Virus record (IMG/VR): IMGVR_UViG_3300045988_042791
Span: 1-39,227 of that record
Source of the DNA: a virus
DNA: 39,227 nt
Reading direction: 5' to 3' (one strand)
Both the position numbers and the translations under genes were made by a program. Shown one piece after another: positions 56-33,231 of the stretch. The notes under the pieces are model-generated. The model ran no database searches. It saw only the letters and a list, made by a program, of their open reading frames with translations, and was not told where the DNA came from. The first letter of the stretch is position 1; each line of letters begins with the position of its first letter.

Positions 56-1225
56 TCAGACACCAACCGTTTCAACGGTTCCATCGACACCTTGCGTCGC
101 TTTTGCCCACATTTTGCCCACATTCTGCGAAAAAAGCAAACCGCCCATCCTCTCCGACAAATCGTCCAGATCATCGTCGAAGAGATCGGCGTAAACATCC
201 AATGTCATGGCGGCCGACTTGTGCCCCAACTGCCTTTGCACGGTCTTGACGTTAGCGCCGGACTGCACCATGAGACTAGCGGCCGTATGGCGTAGATCGT
301 GAATCGTCATGTGGCCACGGTCCACGCCCGCGCGACGAAGAGCCACCGCGAACCACCCATCGCTTCGCGTCGGATTCCAGCCGTTTCCCATCGGCTCGTC
401 CAAAGGCTCGCCGGGAGCAGTGAAAAGGAAATCGGACGACCTGCGCCCCTCGCATTGCCTGGCGAGCAGTGGACGCAACACCAGTGGGAACATCACCGAA
501 CGTCCATCATGAGTTTTCGGGTCGGTCTCCACCAGCCTGCTGGAAAGACGCGTGATGCTCCTATATATATGCAGCCGACAGCGTTGCAGATCGACATCCT
601 CGACACGGAGCGCCACAAGCTCACCCCACCTCATTCCGCACAGGCCCAAGGTCAGCACGATCGGCTCACGCCAACCGCACTGCATCGCCACACGCGACAA
701 TTCGTCAGCCGAGAGATAGACATGCTTCCGCACCTGCTTGCGCGGCAGCTCGATGCCGTCGCATGGATTGTCGTGGATGCACCGATCGGCCTTTGCCCTC
801 TCCATGAGGCTGCGAAGCAGATTCTCGGCGCGAATCGTCACCGACGCACTGCGTCGTCCGGCCAGATCGGTGACCCACCGCTGCACTTCGTCGCGCGTGA
901 TTGACTGCATCTCCCTCATGCCCCACTGCGGCTCCACATGCACGCGCCAAGCGTCTTCCAGCGACTTGATGTAGCTTGGCTTCGCCTTGGTCTTCTTGGC
1001 GGCCAGCCACGGCTCCCAGAAGTCCTCCACGAGCCTGCGCCCGGCCTGTGGGTCGATGTAGGCTCCGACGCTTTTCGCGGTGGTCACATTGGCCGCTCCC
1101 CACGCATCGGCGTCCATCTTGCGCTTGAAGCCACGCCTTCCGGTGGACGACCCGTCGGGCTTGCGGTAGCGCACCTCGTAGCGTTTGCCGGATTTTGTCG
1201 TGTATTGGCGGATTGTGTAGGCCAT
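56..1225 (-). CDS. int: Tyrosine-type phage integrase
   Basis: 389 aa. C-terminal HDLRHTAAS...LGHKSAAMTLDVYADLF fits the R..HxxR..Y catalytic signature. GAAGGGG RBS. Lies next to attL. Confidence 0.95.
   Translation of the reverse strand: MAYTIRQYTTKSGKRYEVRYRKPDGSSTGRRGFKRKMDADAWGAANVTTAKSVGAYIDPQAGRRLVEDFWEPWLAAKKTKAKPSYIKSLEDAWRVHVEPQWGMREMQSITRDEVQRWVTDLAGRRSASVTIRAENLLRSLMERAKADRCIHDNPCDGIELPRKQVRKHVYLSADELSRVAMQCGWREPIVLTLGLCGMRWGELVALRVEDVDLQRCRLHIYRSITRLSSRLVETDPKTHDGRSVMFPLVLRPLLARQCEGRRSSDFLFTAPGEPLDEPMGNGWNPTRSDGWFAVALRRAGVDRGHMTIHDLRHTAASLMVQSGANVKTVQRQLGHKSAAMTLDVYADLFDDDLDDLSERMGGLLFSQNVGKMWAKATQGVDGTVETVGV
104..121. promoter_or_regulatory. Tandem 11-bp GCCCACATTTT motif; candidate arm-type integrase binding sites (partner pair at 39080-39097)
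   Basis: The 18-nt string TGCCCACATTTTGCCCAC occurs only near the two prophage ends, in the same orientation, 60-100 bp from the core. Confidence 0.45.
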
Positions 1226-2762: not shown

Positions 2763-2789
2763 GCCCCTCCTCCATGATGGAGAAGGGGC
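2763..2789 (-). terminator. Rho-independent terminator ending the late/lysis operon
   Basis: 12-bp stem with one mismatch (GCCCCTTCTCCAT / ATGGAGGAGGGGC). On the minus strand it is followed by TTTATTTTT. Confidence 0.7.
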
Positions 2790-3170: not shown

Positions 3171-3971
3171 TTAGAATCGGTTTTGATTGAGTGCCGTCTG
3201 CAAGGCCCGAGCCGTACCAGGACCGAATGATGCGTCCTGCGCCAAGCCGTAGTGCGCTTGGATGGCGCGAATGGTGGCAGGGCCAAGCAGACCATCAACA
3301 CCACAGCCCAGGCGACGCTGCACGGCGCGGATCAGATCACTGCCGCCAGCACCGTAGCGAACCACGCTCGAATCGATTGCCGGACGCGCGTAAGTCCTGC
3401 CGTCAGGCACCTGCTGGCCGCTGATGACGCCATCCACCGAAGTACCCATCACCTGCTGCCAACGGCGCACCGTGGCCGGGCCGACATTGCCATCCACTGC
3501 GATGGCACCGGAATTTGCGGCTGGAGCGGAAGACTGGGCGCCCTGGTATCGCAGATAGCAATTCCACGGATAGTTGTAGTAGGCGCGGATGTTGGTTTCG
3601 CGGCCAGTCTGGTCACCAGCCCTGCCATACGCGGTGCCACGCTCGCTGATGGACGCCTGCGCGAGCTTGCCGCCGCCAAGATAGACGGCCACGTGGTGCA
3701 CGTCGTTGAGCAGGATGTCGCCCGGCTGCGGACTGCCGTTCGCGGGCAGACGGGTCCAGCCGCGACGGGTCAGATTGCCGCTCAGATTGCCGGTGTAGGT
3801 GGCCGTGCCGGTGTCGAAGCCCGCCTCACGCAGGCAGTGGATCACCAGACTGGAGCAGTCGCAATTACCCGCCGAAGCGTTGAAATTCCAACGGTCGGAC
3901 TGGCTGTAGCCGAGATTGGCGACTGCGCACCAGTAGCGCATGCGATTGATGAAAGTGCTTACGCTTGCCAT
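3171..3971 (-). CDS. Endolysin: NlpC/P60- or CHAP-like cysteine peptidase plus tandem peptidoglycan-binding repeats
   Basis: CDCSSLV...HHVAVYLGGG Cys/His pattern. C-terminal GPATVRRWQQVMG / GPATIRAIQAHYG / GPGTARALQTAL repeats resemble PG_binding_1. Confidence 0.85.
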   Translation of the reverse strand: MASVSTFINRMRYWCAVANLGYSQSDRWNFNASAGNCDCSSLVIHCLREAGFDTGTATYTGNLSGNLTRRGWTRLPANGSPQPGDILLNDVHHVAVYLGGGKLAQASISERGTAYGRAGDQTGRETNIRAYYNYPWNCYLRYQGAQSSAPAANSGAIAVDGNVGPATVRRWQQVMGTSVDGVISGQQVPDGRTYARPAIDSSVVRYGAGGSDLIRAVQRRLGCGVDGLLGPATIRAIQAHYGLAQDASFGPGTARALQTALNQNRF

Positions 3972-3972
3972 G

Positions 3973-4092
3973 TCAGTCCTCCAATCCTTCGACGGCCTTG
4001 GCCGCGTCCTCCTCGGACACGACTTGAATGGTTTCGGGCGGCATCGAATCGCCCTGCGGTGTCATTTCCGGCGTCATGGTCACATCGATCAC
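3973..4092 (-). CDS. 39-aa acidic small ORF upstream of the endolysin
   Basis: GTG start 6 nt after GGAAAGGAGG. The stop lies 1 nt before the endolysin ATG. No recognisable family. Confidence 0.3.
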   Translation of the reverse strand: MIDVTMTPEMTPQGDSMPPETIQVVSEEDAAKAVEGLED

Positions 4093-4129
4093 GACCGCCT
4101 CCTTTCCGCCTCTTTCGAGGCAAACGAAA

Positions 4130-4153
4130 GGGCCACCACTGAAGTGATGGCCC
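4130..4153 (-). terminator. Intrinsic terminator inside the late operon, just upstream of the lysis genes
   Basis: Minus sense reads GGGCCATCAC-TTCA-GTGGTGGCCC followed by TTTCGTTTG. Confidence 0.6.
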
Positions 4154-4165
4154 TGAAAATCGGTG

Positions 4166-4252
4166 TCAGCGCATGTGAGCGCCGTGATTAAAAATGAGAA
4201 TGAGCGCGAGGAGAATCAGGTAGGCTCCTCCCGCGATGGCGAGGTGTGTCAT
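4166..4252 (-). CDS. 28-aa hydrophobic peptide (MTHLAIAGGAYLILLALILIFNHGAHMR)
   Basis: ATGA start/stop overlap with the upstream gene. Single TM helix. Too short for the ORF track. Confidence 0.35.
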   Translation of the reverse strand: MTHLAIAGGAYLILLALILIFNHGAHMR

Positions 4253-4638
4253 TGCCGTTCCTCCAAGTATTTTTCGGCGGCGTTGACTATCCAGCATTGC
4301 GCGTCGAGTTTTTCGAGCTTAGCCAGCTCGTATCGGACGGCCTCACTGTGGTCGTGGCTTTGGTCGCCGTAGATCAGGGAAATCAGCGTGTTTTTTATGG
4401 TGTCGCGGCAGAGTTCGTCCATGCGCTCGTCAAAGCGTTCCGTCCGCTCGCCTAATTGGCGGGTTTTGGCGAAATGCTGGGAAAGCACACTGTTATACGG
4501 CAAGCGCTCAGGATTGACGTGGGCATAAAGACCAGTAGCCAATGATTCGAGCGCCCCCGGCCAGATTTTGAGACATAGTGTGATTACCGCGCACGCGCCG
4601 CCCACACCACCAAACCCTGCTAGAAACGTTTGAAACAC
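4249..4638 (-). CDS. Membrane-anchored protein of unknown function (N-terminal TM plus helical soluble domain)
   Basis: 129 aa. The N-terminal GFGGVGGACAVITLCL segment is hydrophobic. Lies between the cassette array and the lysis genes. Confidence 0.65.
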   Translation of the reverse strand: MFQTFLAGFGGVGGACAVITLCLKIWPGALESLATGLYAHVNPERLPYNSVLSQHFAKTRQLGERTERFDERMDELCRDTIKNTLISLIYGDQSHDHSEAVRYELAKLEKLDAQCWIVNAAEKYLEERQ

Positions 4639-4659
4639 ATCACATCTCCTTGAAATCGT

Positions 4660-5052
4660 TTAATCTTTTGGCATGGTGTCGCCATCGAAATAATTGCCCG
4701 GCAATCCCAACGAGACGAGCTGCTGCCACTGGTCTTGAGGCACGCACAAGCCCTTGCTCAGATTGACCGTGCAATTGTTCAGCCCGACGAGAATGCCGTG
4801 AGTGGTGCTGGCGGCGGTGAAGACGTAATCCACGCGACCATTCGAACTGACCAGCCCACTATCACTGCCATTGGTGGTGAGACGCAAGCGCGGATTGTCG
4901 CCACTCGTGGACAGCATGTAACAGACGACGCTCACATGGTATTTCACGCCCGCCGTCAACCCCGTGAACGTGATGTCCGATGGTGTCGTGTTCGTCGTCT
5001 TGACGCTCACACCGTCTTTCGGCATGACGCAGGAATTCACGATGAAACTCAT
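4660..5052 (-). CDS. Cassette A: small beta-rich CBM-like or receptor-binding-like protein ending ...NYFDGDTMPKD
   Basis: 130 aa. GGGGGTGA RBS. Shares N-terminal xN(L/S)(C/W)xxP and C-terminal F-x-GDTMP motifs with cassettes B and C. Confidence 0.75.
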   Translation of the reverse strand: MSFIVNSCVMPKDGVSVKTTNTTPSDITFTGLTAGVKYHVSVVCYMLSTSGDNPRLRLTTNGSDSGLVSSNGRVDYVFTAASTTHGILVGLNNCTVNLSKGLCVPQDQWQQLVSLGLPGNYFDGDTMPKD

Positions 5053-5071
5053 GCCATCACCCCCGTAAGGG

Positions 5072-5440
5072 TTAGGCGAGCGGCATCGTGTCCCCGGTGA
5101 AATATCCGATGCTGTCGAGCAGGGTCTTGTTCGCCTGGTATTCGTCCCACGTGCAGATGAGCATGTTCGTCACTGTGACGGTCGGACTGCCTGACTTGAC
5201 GTGATAACTCATTGATATCGGATGGGAATTGTTGATGAGCATCTTGTAGCTGACACGTTGTCTTGCGTTGATGTCGCCATCCGCTCCGATTATCGAGATA
5301 GTGCCGCCTGTGACGTTCACCTCGACGCTGATCTGATATGTCGCCCCATTCACGCTCGGAAGGGTCGTGATATTCACCCACTTGTCGGCTTTCAGGGTGA
5401 TGGTCGAGGATGGGCTCGTGCATAGGTTCGTGACCATCAT
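5072..5440 (-). CDS. Cassette B: paralogous small CBM-like protein ending ...GYFTGDTMPLA
   Basis: 122 aa. This frame gives a beta-strand-like composition, whereas the overlapping 5049-5450 frame is Arg/His-rich. Confidence 0.75.
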   Translation of the reverse strand: MMVTNLCTSPSSTITLKADKWVNITTLPSVNGATYQISVEVNVTGGTISIIGADGDINARQRVSYKMLINNSHPISMSYHVKSGSPTVTVTNMLICTWDEYQANKTLLDSIGYFTGDTMPLA

Positions 5441-5467
5441 CGGACATCACCCGCCCGACGAATCGCC

Positions 5468-5896
5468 TTAATCGCGTGGCATCGTGTCGCCCGTGAAGAA
5501 GCCCGGAAGCCCCCCCCCGAGCGCCGCGTCATACGTGTCGGCGGCTTCCACGCTCAATTCGCTGATGGCCATACCGGAGGGGACGGCCAGGCGCGTGTCA
5601 TTGGCGGTCGGGGTGAAGCGGATCGTATGTTTCCCGACCGTCTGGGCACTTGGGTGTTCGCTCGTGCCGCCGGAAAAGATGCCGATGCTTTTATTCGTCG
5701 TATCGTTGCTGACGATCCTGAACGTGCACACGTATTCCACGCCGACCTCGCACGCGAAAGGCAGGTCGATGTATTCGCCTCTGGTGTTGGCCAGCGTGCC
5801 ACCGGTCATGTACTTCGATATGTCGCCGCCCTTTTTGACGACATGGAAGCCGGTGGGGTCGAACTTTGGGTTCAGCCACAGGTTAATCCTCTGCAT
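5468..5896 (-). CDS. Cassette C: paralogous small CBM-like protein ending ...GFFTGDTMPRD
   Basis: 142 aa. The N-terminus INLWLNPKFDPTG resembles the NLxxNPSFE start of actinophage minor-tail CBM-like domains. GGGAG RBS. Confidence 0.75.
   Translation of the reverse strand: MQRINLWLNPKFDPTGFHVVKKGGDISKYMTGGTLANTRGEYIDLPFACEVGVEYVCTFRIVSNDTTNKSIGIFSGGTSEHPSAQTVGKHTIRFTPTANDTRLAVPSGMAISELSVEAADTYDAALGGGLPGFFTGDTMPRD
5510..5518. repeat. C9 (G9 in coding sense) homopolymer inside cassette C, encoding GGG
   Basis: Counted directly in gaagCCCCCCCCCga. It lies 13 codons before the stop, just upstream of the conserved tail. Confidence 0.9.
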
Positions 5897-6053: not shown

Positions 6054-6124
6054 AATGTCTCCTTAAATACGAAACCCCCGCAATCCGCGTGGATTGCAGG
6101 GGTTGAAAAAATTGGAATGCTGGA

Positions 6125-22638: not shown

Positions 22639-24252
22639 TCATACGACTGCGAAATGGGTCACGCTCGGCGCATATTTCGGTTTTTCGTTTTCGACTTGCA
22701 TGGTCTCCAACGCGTAAAGCGCCTGCGATTCGGCCACTAGGCCGCTGATCTGCAGTGCTGATTTCGTCCTGTCCCACACCTCGACTTCGCCGAGCCGCCG
22801 GGATACTGCCACGCTCACCTGCTGTTCGATGGCGGGCTGCGGGAGATGCCGTAGCTTGCCCTCACGCACACGATCATGGAAACGACCACAGCACGCGCCC
22901 AACCGGAAGCCTTCGATGAGATGCACCGTCCACCCTTTTTCGATCAAAGGGTCGATGAAATCCACGGCAGGACAGCCCTTGCCCTGCACGGCGATCTCCG
23001 TGATATGCGGCCAACGCTCCTGCAGCAGGTCGAGATAATGCGGCACCCACAGCATGCCGTCACGACGAGCTATCAACTCCACATGCGGCAAACCGTCCGC
23101 ACGCATTCCGGCAGCGGCCACATACGTGGTCTTACGGTCCGCGCTCGTGTCCACGGACAGCACGACGCGATTACAGTCAGGAATCGTGGAACGCGAGTCG
23201 ATGCCGCTGGCCCACATTTTCGGGTTGATAAAAGGAATGATGTCAGCCGTGACCCACTGGCACAGGACTTCCGTACGGAACGCGGCCTCGGTCATGCCGT
23301 CAATATCGGAACGAACCGACATGACAGTCATCGGACCGTAGCCGAGCGACGGATTCGCCTGACGAATAGCGTCGGCATCATCCACCGGACACTTGTCAGG
23401 CGCAGACCATTCGAAATATCCGAAAGAGCCGTCCTGCTCGCCGGACATGAACACGTCGGCCGGATTGCCCCCGTCGGCGCTCAGACGAGTCCACTCGTCA
23501 ACAAGCTTGCGGCCCTTGTCCACCTGCTTGCGAAGCGCGACGCTGCGATAATCGCCCGCATTGCTGATGCCCCATAATTGGCTCGACCAGACCGCCTTCG
23601 TGGTCTGGCTGACGGCATTCCAGCCATCGTCAGTATGCTGTTCACGAAGCTCATCGAACACCACACGTGCAGCGCTCTTCGCGCGGATATTCTTATCCGC
23701 GCGGACGATATACCGGGCTTTCGAGCGGGTGATGATCGCCTCCTCGCCGTTAGTGTTGACGAATTTCTGGGTCATCGCGGCGAGATCCGGAATGACCAGA
23801 TCTTCTTCCTCATCGGTAGAAGGCTGAGGATTGCACCACTCCTTGACCTGATTGTACGGGCCCTTGGCGTTGTCCAATGTCTGCGCTGCGCCGACCACCA
23901 GGAACTTCACGGGCGGCACACGGTCGGGATGCTTGTTGGAATCGACGAACAGCCACCATGCTGCCAAAACGCCCATAAGCGTGGTCTTGCCATTCTGACG
24001 GGCCACAAGCACAATCACCTTGCGAAAGCGATAGCTGCCATCTTCAAGCAATTCCAAAGCATGGACGAGCAGCCACTGCTGCCACGGATACAAATGCACG
24101 TGCAGCATGATTTCCGCGAACGCGATCACCGCGAAACCATTACTCGTCTCCCTCGTCAACGGACGAAGCGGCGGCGTAAAGATACGCGGCAACGTAACAC
24201 CATGCAGGTCGTCATCGATGGCGCCGAAAACACTCAAATCTTCCGACACCAT
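22639..24252 (-). CDS. Terminase large subunit
   Basis: 537 aa. Walker A-like VLVARQNGKTT motif and a C-terminal nuclease region. Confidence 0.95.
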   Translation of the reverse strand: MVSEDLSVFGAIDDDLHGVTLPRIFTPPLRPLTRETSNGFAVIAFAEIMLHVHLYPWQQWLLVHALELLEDGSYRFRKVIVLVARQNGKTTLMGVLAAWWLFVDSNKHPDRVPPVKFLVVGAAQTLDNAKGPYNQVKEWCNPQPSTDEEEDLVIPDLAAMTQKFVNTNGEEAIITRSKARYIVRADKNIRAKSAARVVFDELREQHTDDGWNAVSQTTKAVWSSQLWGISNAGDYRSVALRKQVDKGRKLVDEWTRLSADGGNPADVFMSGEQDGSFGYFEWSAPDKCPVDDADAIRQANPSLGYGPMTVMSVRSDIDGMTEAAFRTEVLCQWVTADIIPFINPKMWASGIDSRSTIPDCNRVVLSVDTSADRKTTYVAAAGMRADGLPHVELIARRDGMLWVPHYLDLLQERWPHITEIAVQGKGCPAVDFIDPLIEKGWTVHLIEGFRLGACCGRFHDRVREGKLRHLPQPAIEQQVSVAVSRRLGEVEVWDRTKSALQISGLVAESQALYALETMQVENEKPKYAPSVTHFAVV

Positions 24253-24262
24253 CGAACGCCTC

Positions 24263-24610
24263 CTAGCCGAAACGCTTCATGAAATCTTCCATCTGCACAA
24301 CCTTGTCGCTCTTACGCGCCTCCGGCTTAGATTCAACCTTCGGCTTCGCAGGACGACCAACCTTAGCCGGAGCATCAACCGTCAAACCCAAGCTCTGGCA
24401 ATACTTCAGGAACGTCGGCAGCGACACGTTGTCGAGCTTGCCGTTCTCATCGACAAAACCGGAAAACGTCAGATAATCGATACGCTCAGCCAACACGCGA
24501 GCCGCAGCGACAACAGCAGAATTCACAGCCTTGAGGTCAGCGTTCTTCAACGAACGCTCCAACGCCTCCGCCACATTCCGACTCGGAAACTTCGCACTCA
24601 TCGAAAACAC
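24263..24610 (-). CDS. Terminase small subunit (the true start may be the ATG at 24601)
   Basis: 115 aa. Helical N-terminal domain and a basic tail. Lies directly upstream of TerL. Confidence 0.7.
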   Translation of the reverse strand: MFSMSAKFPSRNVAEALERSLKNADLKAVNSAVVAAARVLAERIDYLTFSGFVDENGKLDNVSLPTFLKYCQSLGLTVDAPAKVGRPAKPKVESKPEARKSDKVVQMEDFMKRFG

Positions 24611-24746: not shown

Positions 24747-25055
24747 TTAGTCGTTTGTGTTGATCCATTGTCGGCTTAGTGTGCCGATGGGCGTTGGTGG
24801 GTCTTGGTTGCTTCTGAGTCGGTTGCAGCTGGTGTGGCTTGGTCGGAAGCCTGCCGGGTCGAACTGCAGTTCGGGGTGCTTCGAGACGGGATAGAGGTGA
24901 TCGAGATTGAATGAATCATCAGTGGTGTTCTTCGGCGCCTCGTAGTCTATCGGCATTCCGCAGAGCCAGCAGACCGCATGGCTTGCCTTGCACTTTGTGA
25001 AGAATGCGGCTTTGTCTTTTTCGAATTGGCGTGTGGTCTTGCGGATTCTTGGCAT
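24747..25055 (-). CDS. HNH endonuclease (packaging-associated)
   Basis: CWLCG...DHLYPVSKHPE...SHTSCN fits the HNH/zinc pattern. Sits next to the terminase genes, as in cos phages. Confidence 0.85.
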   Translation of the reverse strand: MPRIRKTTRQFEKDKAAFFTKCKASHAVCWLCGMPIDYEAPKNTTDDSFNLDHLYPVSKHPELQFDPAGFRPSHTSCNRLRSNQDPPTPIGTLSRQWINTND

Positions 25056-25072: not shown

Positions 25073-25223
25073 TGGTGCTTCGGGTGGGAGTCGAACCCAC
25101 GACTTTGAGGAGGACACTGTTTCTTATGACGGGCATTCAAAGAATCATGGAGCCATGGCCGGTTTGGTATCCGTCCCTGGTATCTGTGCCGTCCTTTACG
25201 CTCTGCCGTTGAGCTACCGAAGC
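25073..25223 (-). ncRNA. 151-nt tRNA-like element with canonical acceptor stem, D-arm, T-arm and encoded CCA, but 98 nt in place of the anticodon arm and variable loop
   Basis: GCUUCGG/CCGAAGC is a 7-bp acceptor stem. D-arm is GCUC-AACGGCA-GAGC. T-arm is GUGGG-UUCGACU-CCCAC, followed by A-CCA. A manual scan found no 5-7-5 anticodon hairpin. Confidence 0.6.
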
Positions 25224-25233
25224 TGGATATGAA

Positions 25234-25267
25234 AAATGGTCCAAACCATTTTCTGGCTGGACCATTT
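25234..25267 (-). terminator. Terminator hairpin immediately downstream of the candidate late promoter
   Basis: Minus sense reads AAAUGGUCCA-14 nt-UGGACCAUUU followed by UUCAU. An alternative AAAUGGU-UUGG-ACCAUUU hairpin shares the same 3' arm. Confidence 0.6.
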
Positions 25268-25286
25268 CATTTTACAAACATACGAC

Positions 25287-25314
25287 AGTATAGCATTTTA
25301 ATTGTGACAGTCAA
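25287..25314 (-). promoter_or_regulatory. Candidate late promoter: TTGACT - 16 nt - TGcTATACT (extended -10)
   Basis: Read on the minus strand. It overlaps the last codons of the upstream regulator gene. It is the only strong promoter-like site ahead of the 21-kb late operon. Confidence 0.6.
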
Positions 25315-26050
25315 GCATGGCGGTTATTTCTCCGAGGTTGAACACGTACTCTCCTTTGTGTTTTGTCGGCGTGGCGTGCAGTTTGCCTCTGGTGAGCCAT
25401 TGGCGGATCTGGTCGCTGGTGCAGTGGATGTCCATTTTGGCGAGGTAGCGTGCGACTTCGACTGGTTTTCCGGTGTATTCGAGTTGCCAGAGTTTGTTGT
25501 CGCGTTCGGCTTTGATGGCTTGGACTCCGCCTTGCCATTTGCAGTCTGGGCATGTCCATGTTTCGGCTTGTGGCGTGCTGGTGGCTTGGTAGTCGCATTT
25601 TGGGCAGGTGCCGATGATGACCATGGCTTCTTCCGGGGTCAACGCTTGTTCGTTGCGTCGGACGATGTGTTCCAGGGCGGCGTAGTCATCGGCGGCGGTG
25701 CTCATCGCCAATATGGTGTGCCGGTTGCTGATGATGGCGTACCATGCTTTCCGCCAGTCGAATCCAGCGTATGCCGTTCTGATTTTCCCTGCCTGTTCGG
25801 CCAGCCAGGCTTCAGAATCTGCGATGAGGTCTTGAGCGTGGGTGTCGATTGGCAGTGGCGCGTTGCCTCGGCTTGGCGTGTGTGTTGTGGTGCCGATGCG
25901 GGCCTGACGGAGCATGATGCTGCGCAGGGCGGGCAGTTGGACGTGGCCGAGTTGGCGGATCAGCTGCCAGTAGGTTTCGCGGCAGCTGGCGCAGAGCAGA
26001 TTCGCGGCGATCGGCTTCATTGGCTTCTGGCAGTGTTTGCAGTTGGTCAA
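25298..26050 (-). CDS. Zinc-ribbon (x2) plus C-terminal HTH protein; candidate late-gene regulator/antiterminator
   Basis: TTG start overlapping the upstream stop (TTGA). Contains CKHC..CASC and CPKC..CPDC pairs and a C-terminal VARYLAKMDIHCTSDQIRQWLTRGKL HTH. It is the last early gene. Confidence 0.65.
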   Translation of the reverse strand: MTNCKHCQKPMKPIAANLLCASCRETYWQLIRQLGHVQLPALRSIMLRQARIGTTTHTPSRGNAPLPIDTHAQDLIADSEAWLAEQAGKIRTAYAGFDWRKAWYAIISNRHTILAMSTAADDYAALEHIVRRNEQALTPEEAMVIIGTCPKCDYQATSTPQAETWTCPDCKWQGGVQAIKAERDNKLWQLEYTGKPVEVARYLAKMDIHCTSDQIRQWLTRGKLHATPTKHKGEYVFNLGEITAMLDCHN

Positions 26051-33055: not shown

Positions 33056-33231
33056 CGTGTTCCCTTTCTGAGGTTTTCGATGAGCGTGTGGTTTTCGCGG
33101 ATGAACGTGTCCACGTCGATTCCCTGCTGCGTGAGGGTCGGCTTGCCGTCTGCGACGCGTGCCTTCCCGTCGCTTGTGACGTTTGGATGGCTTTTGCACT
33201 GTGTCGCCGGAACGAACATTCCGTTTCTCAT
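33052..33231 (-). CDS. 59-aa small protein
   Basis: ATGA overlap with the upstream gene. Confidence 0.4.
   Translation of the reverse strand: MRNGMFVPATQCKSHPNVTSDGKARVADGKPTLTQQGIDVDTFIRENHTLIENLRKGTR

Follow-up and report, generated by a model that had tools for sequence, protein, structure and literature searches.

A conserved regulator, promoter and hairpin upstream of the packaging genes as a candidate late-gene switch in phages of Actinobacteria

The window studied here is a stretch of viral DNA of 39,227 nucleotides (nt), positions 1 to 39,227 of the IMG/VR record IMGVR_UViG_3300045988_042791. It belongs to a temperate siphophage of Bifidobacterium, with the Bifidobacterium phages Bbif-1 and BigBern1 as the closest isolates by protein, and a human-faecal contig named "Bacteriophage sp." was 84% identical across the region. 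Nearly all genes in the window are carried on the minus strand, on which the early operon ends with a gene for a protein of 250 amino acids (25298..26050, -), here called the regulator candidate. The 3' end of this gene is overlapped by a sigma-70-type promoter (25287..25314, -), which is followed by an RNA hairpin predicted to be an intrinsic terminator (25234..25267, -), a tRNA-like RNA, and the HNH endonuclease gene that opens the late operon. We consider this module to be real and conserved and, judged from its sequence, likely to include a late-gene regulator.

The promoter, TTGACT-16-TGcTATACT, consists of a -35 element, TTGACT, at 25314..25309, a TG extension at 25295..25294, and a -10 element, TATACT, at 25292..25287 (all -), and matches the consensus at 10 of 12 positions. 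The stop codon of the regulator gene, TAA (25300..25298), sits within the 16-nt spacer, and transcription is predicted to start at 25281/25280. This was the sole TG-extended site in the window, in which other promoter-like matches were found at the level of shuffled sequences (10 versus 8.3±2.8 expected, and 5 versus 5.6±2.3). The 28-nt promoter string was identical in 80 of 80 related loci, a set of viral contigs whose regulator proteins are 83% to 92% identical, and the adjoining codons varied. The original prediction, which had placed a strong promoter over the final codons of the regulator gene, is thereby upheld.

The 3' flank of the regulator gene was also read in 17 independent lineages, in which the protein is 24% to 42% identical to the window protein or more distant. 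A site that matched at least 10 of the 12 consensus positions and started no more than 20 nt from the regulator stop was present in 9 of them, regardless of the final codons. With a background on the same strand of the same loci of 2.3e-4 per nt, which corresponds to a chance of about 0.018 per lineage in an 81-nt interval, the binomial probability of this count is about 5e-12 by our own arithmetic. The overlap between promoter and stop codon took the form GCT-TGA-CA in lineage L092, AAG-GCT-TGA-CGG in Bbif-1, and TAG-C-TTGACA in Corynebacterium phage BFK20. Partial sites were seen in several other lineages, such as TTGCGC-17-TGgTATGAT in L088 and TGcTATGGT in Propionibacterium phage PFR1. The strong F1 promoter of BFK20, which is used in biotechnology, would have provided evidence of constitutive activity had it been the promoter downstream of gene product 54 (gp54), the regulator homolog of that phage. 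It was ruled out, since the primers published for F1 lie at 33091-33176, on the opposite strand. From its sequence, the promoter in the window should be used by the host sigma-A RNA polymerase unaided, and a promoter so close to the consensus would need a downstream block rather than an activator.

The predicted block, here called tL, is a hairpin with a stem of 13 to 14 base pairs (bp), one bulge, and a GAAA-type loop. Its sequence is AAATGGTCCAGCC-AGAAAAT-GGT(T)TGGACCATTT, where the T's run to 25232 and are followed by CATATCC. As originally noted, it begins at about +15 from the predicted start and is followed by a U-run, UUUUU in the window; the predicted terminated RNA is about 50 nt long. 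The folding energy was -15 to -20 kcal/mol (about -20 kcal/mol with the leader). In an alignment of 27 of the approximately 40 distinct leaders from the 80 related loci, 94% of the cells were paired, as compared with 90.4±0.6 in shuffled versions, and none of 500 shuffles reached 94%. Three pairs changed on both sides, and two positions were mostly G·U, for which pairing is possible only as RNA on the sense strand of the late genes. Because of the excess pairing, the double-sided changes and the strand-specific G·U pairs, we conclude that the hairpin is a selected RNA structure. A second, alternative 5' arm had also been proposed. Such an arm exists in the window (-7.5 kcal/mol) and in roughly half of the 27 variants, but it is weak or missing in the others, and nowhere does it come near the stability of the main hairpin. 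It is not conserved, and we regard it as a side effect of the AATGG repeat.

Terminators were scored with a discriminant of the d'Aubenton-Carafa type, computed by a script of our own with modern energy parameters, so that the zero point and the threshold are approximate. The window hairpin scored +7.5, and the other convincing terminators in the window scored -0.6 to +36.4. An automated terminator scan of the window did not flag the leader hairpin, owing to its bulge and long loop. The tails of the leaders (TTTCGCAT-like) resemble those of the other terminators in this genome, and the element has the look of an ordinary, often weak, terminator of Actinobacteria and not of a special motif. A CATATC/TTCGCAT tail after the hairpins was considered as a special conserved element and ruled out, since the other terminators in the window carry the same TTCGT-type tails. 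An Rfam search with the leader gave no family match beyond the chance level.

The regulator gene starts with a TTG codon that overlaps the stop codon of a preceding open reading frame (ORF) of 46 amino acids (TTTGA; 26047..26050, -), which suggests translational coupling at the end of the early operon. The protein contains two cysteine clusters, C4/C7/C20/C23 and C149/C152/C167/C170, and an AlphaFold2 model inferred from 68 sequences (predicted local distance difference test 92.9, predicted template modelling score 0.74) displayed ribbon strands at both clusters and a winged helix-turn-helix (HTH) domain at the C-terminus. The resulting domain order, an N-terminal zinc ribbon, a helical middle, a second zinc ribbon, and a C-terminal BldC/Xis-like winged HTH, agrees with the two CxxC...CxxC ribbons and the C-terminal HTH read from the ORF beforehand. 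A comparison of the last approximately 55 residues with PDB profiles identified BldC (6ama, E 1.1e-3). Foldseek against PDB matched the same residues to BldC (6ama/6amk) with a probability of about 0.9 (0.91), a template modelling score of about 0.6, and a root mean square deviation of 3.1 to 3.4 Å, and also to Xis of mycobacteriophage Pukovnik (4j2n). Furthermore, the RGKL...Y.F motif is that of HTH_17/excisionase domains, and matches to HTH_17 or MerR_1 were obtained for members of the family. The C-terminal domain, and this domain only, is thus of the BldC/Xis/MerR-type winged HTH class. BldC and Xis are small single-domain proteins of 50 to 70 amino acids that bind direct repeats, whereas the domain is here the tail of a 250-residue protein with a helical core and up to two zinc ribbons that have no solved relative. 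Foldseek against PDB recovered no relative of the whole protein and no match at E <= 0.001, and there was no entry for a Q antiterminator in the top 50.

The protein was placed in phrog_908, a PHROGs family of "unknown function" (E 4e-23), and no significant family was obtained from Pfam, where only zinc-ribbon noise appeared at E <= 10. We identified 290 close homologs, some of which, in Bifidobacterium, are named "PhnA protein" by NCBI, a label that evidently stems from the N-terminal ribbon, and a HMMER search across 1.84 billion representative proteins yielded 102 clusters at E <= 0.001, mostly of about 250 amino acids. In a Foldseek search against predicted viral structures, every significant match with a named host was to a phage of Actinobacteria, the others being uncultured viruses or unnamed entries. 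The named matches were to Mycobacterium phages Collard, Pumpkin, and HC, Gordonia phage Eyre, Propionibacterium phage E6, BFK20 (gp54), Rothia phage Spartoi, and Arthrobacter phage Pumancara. Four homologs in Propionibacterium phages, Anatole (NC_041890, gp54), Doucette, B22, and G4 (the other records being NC_041893, NC_041891, and NC_041895), are labeled "sigma-70 family RNA polymerase sigma factor" in RefSeq, and the GenBank versions of the same phages call them "hypothetical protein". No sigma region 2 or 4 domain was detected by Pfam or NCBIfam in the window protein, B3 gp56, Anatole gp54, BFK20 gp54, or the top families of 63 members, and neither the sigma-70 label nor the PhnA label was borne out by these two databases. 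Scans of viral contigs with peptide patterns from distant members found almost nothing, and the module was nowhere mentioned in papers on bifidoprophages, on phages of P. freudenreichii, or on the late promoters of actinophages.

The order of regulator stop and promoter, terminator, HNH gene, and terminase recurred in distant members of the family, among them phages that have been isolated (BFK20 and phi673 of Corynebacterium; B3, Anatole, and PFR1 of Propionibacterium), and the architecture is kept family-wide across three host genera. The regulator gene was always the last one before the packaging genes, in the window, Bbif-1, BigBern1, B3, Anatole, BFK20, phi673, PFR1, and the metagenomic lineages. 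A promoter followed by a terminator was predicted in at least 10 lineages, including BFK20, phi673, B3, L087, L088, L092, and L094. More generally, a G+C-rich hairpin was located within about 120 nt after the promoter in 12 to 13 lineages, with tails that ranged from canonical to U-poor. The hairpin of BFK20 is canonical (GGCAAGGG-CACGAT-CCCTTGCC-TTTTCTTTAT) and scored +19.9, that of B3, with the tail TTTTCGCATG, scored +13.7, and that of phi673 scored +4.8.

Downstream of the hairpin, the late genes are co-oriented for about 21 kilobases (kb), with internal terminators and no better promoter: matches to 9 of 12 consensus positions were seen on the late strand at the chance level only, in line with the claim that no other obvious promoter is present. 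The first protein gene of the late operon encodes the HNH endonuclease (24747..25055, -; phrog_338, E 3.7e-27), and is followed by a TerS-like gene (24610..24263, -), the TerL gene (24252..22639, -; phrog_9 terminase large subunit, E 5e-70), the head and tail genes, and the endolysin gene (3971..3171, -). On the other side of the module, the early and replication genes, including those for a RecT-like protein and a replication initiator, extend from about 37.8 kb down to 26 kb; the integrase gene is at 1225..56. The two further terminators proposed in the original prediction were recovered, one at 4129..4154 (-), 160 nt upstream of the endolysin gene, with a score of +12.2, and a strong one at 2763..2789 (-), which closes the late and lysis operon with a score of +36.4. 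One more, with a 14-bp stem and the tail TCGTATTT, was identified at 6073..6104 (-; score +15.6). The endolysin and holin genes thus sit behind two good terminators, and no promoter-like site was found between these internal terminators and the endolysin gene. If the lysis genes are transcribed from the single upstream promoter, read-through of three terminators (the leader hairpin, 6104..6073, and 4154..4129) would be needed, which speaks for a processive rather than a local mechanism.

Shortly before the endolysin gene, the terminator at 4154..4129 has a very small ORF on either side. One of them (4165..4251, -) encodes a hydrophobic peptide of 28 amino acids, MTHLAIAGGAYLILLALILIFNHGAHMR, and the other (3973..4091, -) has 39 codons and a GTG start; both are possible lysis accessory peptides. 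Four consecutive ORFs of about 130 amino acids, without PHROG or Pfam matches, are located between the two internal terminators (4249..5896, -). The idea that they represent shufflon-like paralogous cassettes, as in bifidoprophages integrated in dnaJ2, was not supported, with pairwise identities of 15% to 31% and no conserved columns.

Past the hairpin, transcription first reaches an unannotated tRNA-like RNA of 151 nt (25073..25223, -) that starts 8 to 10 nt past the T-run and had been overlooked in the original prediction. It matched the Rfam tRNA model (RF00005) with 42.9 bits, as compared with a gathering score of 29, and was detected only in a sensitive search with permissive filters, being missed by default Rfam and by ARAGORN. 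The acceptor stem, D arm, T arm, and ACCA end are canonical, and a conserved branched insert of about 75 nt replaces the anticodon loop. Since 91 nt stand in for 15 positions of the Rfam model and there is no 7-nt anticodon loop, the RNA falls short of a full cloverleaf. We recovered 44 distinct versions in 67 loci, including L089, in which the regulator is only 30% identical. In the consensus fold, the T arm and the equivalent of the anticodon stem covary, and the replacement of the anticodon loop is an extended helix (GGGAU/AUCCC, GGAAU/AUUCC, AGGAC/GUCCU) that opens into two more helices. An intron-bearing tRNA is a weak reading of this element: ARAGORN reported nothing even in intron mode, and lowering its threshold to 80% forced a tRNA-Asp(GUC) whose 75-nt "intron" is non-canonically placed. 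Moreover, the implied anticodon differs among variants that share one acceptor stem. The RNA is probably not a decoding tRNA and may represent a new class, perhaps a decoy, a processing signal or a primer. Given its position, the hairpin would control whether it is expressed.

The slot between the regulator and the packaging genes is variable. In about 12 of the 80 close relatives, the tRNA-like RNA is swapped for a different non-coding cassette of about 240 nt, after which a different HNH gene follows (L025, 3818-4020; similar in L033, L038, L044, L046, L050, L052, L056, L059, L060, L079, and L080). This cassette starts with GCTGCAGTCGCTATAAT, which contains a perfect TATAAT; it had no Rfam match and its fold was no better than those of shuffled sequences. 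Among the leader, the tRNA-like insert, and the 240-nt cassette, the tRNA model was the only Rfam match, other matches being at the chance level. In L057 and L058, about 60 nt after the hairpin, a clean deletion joins the first approximately 20 nt of the tRNA-like RNA (GCTTCGATAGCCCAACGGTCAGCACAGATACC) to the ribosome-binding site of the HNH gene, which shows that these phages can propagate without the tRNA-like RNA. The slot holds hicA or hicAB in L081 (Bbif-1; 4768-5378), L084 (3262-3874), and L091 (1179-1403). Because these genes replace the hairpin and the tRNA-like RNA in three lineages, the slot is therefore regarded as a hotspot for the exchange of cargo.

Given such variation, with tRNA-like types A and B, the 240-nt cassette, the deletion, and hicA(B) at the same site, the parts of the module might act independently of each other. 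The hairpin would then end the early operon, the promoter would be a constitutive promoter of the cargo slot that is active in the lysogen, the late genes would be expressed via leak-through or another factor, and the protein would have another DNA-binding role, as a packaging or cos accessory or as a recombination directionality factor. Such an arrangement fits the hicA lineages, in which no hairpin separates the promoter from the gene, as well as the many hairpin variants with weak scores, which may leak, and the similarity of the C-terminal domain to both Xis (4j2n) and BldC. MerR-like winged HTH domains are also found in small terminase subunits. We nevertheless consider this explanation unlikely. 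A terminator that served the early operon alone predicts a promoter downstream of the hairpin, whereas the reverse order is kept in at least 10 lineages. In BFK20, phi673, and L087, the HNH gene follows the hairpin with no element in between, and cargo can therefore not explain why the promoter precedes the terminator. The presence of a separate TerS-like gene at 24610..24263, and of Terminase_6 in L092, also argues against it, as does the distance of about 24 kb between the regulator gene and the integrase gene, and the expression of the lysis genes behind two terminators is left unexplained.

The loop of the leader hairpin raises the alternative that the protein acts on RNA, with its zinc ribbons binding the hairpin, with its GNRA-like loop, or the tRNA-like RNA, and thereby either blocking folding, as BglG and LicT do, or reaching RNA polymerase via the RNA, as in the N/nut system. 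The upper stem and loop, CCAGCC-nGAAAn-GGnTGG, are common to the window lineage and L088 although their regulators are only 30% identical, the GAAA, GAGA, and GAAAA loops are reminiscent of boxB, and the ribbons gave weak matches to zinc-ribbon RNA-binding proteins. However, GNRA loops are common in any stable hairpin, and the loop varies among variants and lineages, being ATAATGAT in L005, AACCA in L087, GTTT in L089, and CACGAT in BFK20. BFK20 gp54 misses zinc ribbons yet is associated with the clearest cassette, and the sole confidently assigned domain is a DNA-binding winged HTH. An RNA-directed mechanism is for these reasons very improbable. The HK022 put and lambda N-nut boxB elements are similar to the module in that a conserved stem-loop, with a GNRA-like loop in many variants, directly follows the promoter. 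They differ from it in that the hairpin is here followed by a U-rich tail, the loop varies across lineages, and a dedicated protein gene is always present. No boxA-like motif was found at the module.

Between the predicted start and the hairpin there is a -10-like hexamer, TAAAAT, at about +8..+13 (25269..25274, -), which we put forward as a candidate sigma-dependent pause element. The pattern TA(A/G)AAT was present at +8..+13 in 26 of the 27 leader variants of the window lineage. Its GTA (G12, T13, and A14 of the leader alignment) was invariant or nearly so though unpaired, and the 5 nt before it varied. In L092 the sequence at this position is CAGAAT. A sigma-dependent pause of the Q type requires a -10-like element in the initially transcribed region, and TA(A/G)AAT is what such an element would look like.

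The same hexamer might instead serve as the -10 element of a second start, with the protein acting as an activator of initiation and with transcripts that begin inside the 5' arm of the hairpin and would be unable to form the terminator. Alternatively, the protein might activate the mapped promoter itself, if this were repressed or had less strength in vivo than its sequence implies. The hexamer lacks a -35 partner, as an activator-dependent promoter would, and most of the 5' arm would be lost from the common short leader (GTAGAATGGTTCAGCC) if transcription started 7 nt past TAGAAT. In the long leaders, including that of the window, a start 7 nt past TAAAAT would still leave a stem of 9 to 10 bp and the U tail. 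The late regulators RinA, ArpU, LtrC, and Alt of TP901-1, which are activators, are encoded at the same position, by the last early gene directly before terS or the HNH gene, and are presumed to switch on packaging and lysis. They activate weak promoters, whereas the promoter mapped here is close to the consensus and carries a TG extension, contrary to the activator-dependent type, and is followed by a terminator; no homology to them was found by Pfam or PHROGs. The RefSeq label "sigma-70 family" on some homologs would agree with a role in initiation, but it was not reproduced by Pfam or NCBIfam, and no sigma region 2 or 4 domain was detected in any member. As this scenario also leaves the read-through of the internal terminators unexplained, we judge it distinctly unlikely.

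The reading that we tentatively favor is antitermination similar to that of Q, PR', and tR', by a protein unrelated to Q. The 250-residue protein would be the late-gene regulator of the phage, and the cassette behind its gene the late control point. In the lysogen and early in infection, most transcripts from the promoter would stop at the leader hairpin, as would read-through from the early operon. Once accumulated, the protein would bind near the promoter via its BldC/Xis-like winged HTH and engage RNA polymerase held at a sigma-dependent pause set by TA(A/G)AAT at +8..+13. The polymerase would thereby be made terminator-resistant and would reach the lysis genes by reading through the hairpin of the leader, the tRNA-like RNA, and the two internal terminators (6104..6073 and 4154..4129).

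Several observations weigh against antitermination of this kind. No clear equivalent of the hexamer was evident in BFK20, phi673, or B3, that is, none outside the window lineage and L092. The tail of the hairpin is TTATT, TTCTT, or TTATC in most close relatives, with scores of -11 to -1, and by E. coli rules many of these hairpins would be predicted to terminate poorly; in L083, L088, and PFR1 the U-run is absent. In Bbif-1, L084, and L091, the same promoter runs directly into hicA with no hairpin between them, where, to judge by its setting, it acts like any constitutive promoter. No other promoter-like site precedes the terminase genes on its strand in Bbif-1 and L084. The HTH variants did not co-vary with the promoter-proximal DNA: proteins that are 68% to 70% identical overall, with strong differences around the HTH, are accompanied by an unchanged promoter and leader, so that no such tie of the protein to the DNA is apparent. 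As regards the protein itself, kinship to Q, N, or another known antiterminator, to RinA/ArpU, to sigma factors, and to DksA-like factors was rejected, because Pfam, PHROGs, NCBIfam, sequence and profile searches of PDB, and Foldseek gave a generic zinc ribbon and a BldC/Xis HTH only, with no Q entry among the PDB sequence and profile matches listed. In the accessible literature, no experimental data on any member of the family were found. Finally, B3 gp56 (hhalign probability 96.9%) is without the N-terminal ribbon and BFK20 gp54 (hhalign probability 84%) aligned without the central ribbon. The ribbons are thus dispensable in some members, and the conserved core of the family is the helical domain and the HTH. 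The lambda logic of PR', tR', and Q put forward in the original prediction therefore stands as regards the architecture, which is real and family-wide. It is weakened by the lack of similarity of the protein to Q, which had itself been anticipated, by the degenerate T-run in most close relatives, and by the hicA lineages without a hairpin.

By analogy, the closest functional parallel of the module would be the lambdoid Q systems (Q-lambda, Q21, and Q82, with PR' and tR'). In these, too, the regulator gene is directly upstream of a strong late promoter and a terminator closes a short leader, features that are here predicted from sequence, and the late genes form a single long, co-oriented operon with further terminators inside it. 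The -10-like hexamer in the initially transcribed region of the window lineage would be a candidate counterpart of the pause element in these systems. In phage 933W, tRNA genes follow tR', similar to the tRNA-type RNA between the terminator and the late genes in the window. The short constitutive RNA predicted here would resemble lambda 6S or StxS; in Stx phages, a constitutive late promoter is followed by immediate termination, which yields the short RNA StxS, comparable to lambda 6S (PMC7547250). Unlike in these systems, the regulator has no sequence or fold similarity to any Q, and membership in a Q family therefore fails on homology. The leader is only about 50 nt long, with the hairpin at +15 and a U-tract that is often degenerate, and the host is an actinobacterium.

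The proposal can be extended to the whole of phrog_908, including the window protein, BBP_0951 of Bbif-1, BFK20 gp54, phi673 gp56, B3 gp56, and the relatives in Mycobacterium, Gordonia, Rothia, and Arthrobacter phages. These proteins would represent a fourth, structurally unrelated family of promoter-proximal-loading processive antiterminators and the general late switch of HNH-cos actinobacterial siphophages, with a cassette that also yields a constitutive RNA of about 50 nt and gates a new tRNA-like RNA. In this broad form we regard the proposal as doubtful.

We found no account in the literature of how temperate phages of Actinobacteria, those of Bifidobacterium, Propionibacterium, and Corynebacterium and probably also of Mycobacterium and Gordonia, switch on their late genes. 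The module described here is a concrete candidate for this switch, with one uncharacterized protein family always beside a consensus promoter and a terminator before the packaging genes. BFK20 and its host Corynebacterium glutamicum, which offer the cleanest version of the cassette, provide a tractable system. If the protein is an antiterminator, it would represent a new protein solution to the problem solved by Q and a new way of modifying the RNA polymerase of Actinobacteria. The tRNA-like RNA that the switch would gate may itself belong to an undescribed class of RNA. In gut bifidobacteria, such a switch would control the output of prophage induction, and it could serve as a tight expression switch.

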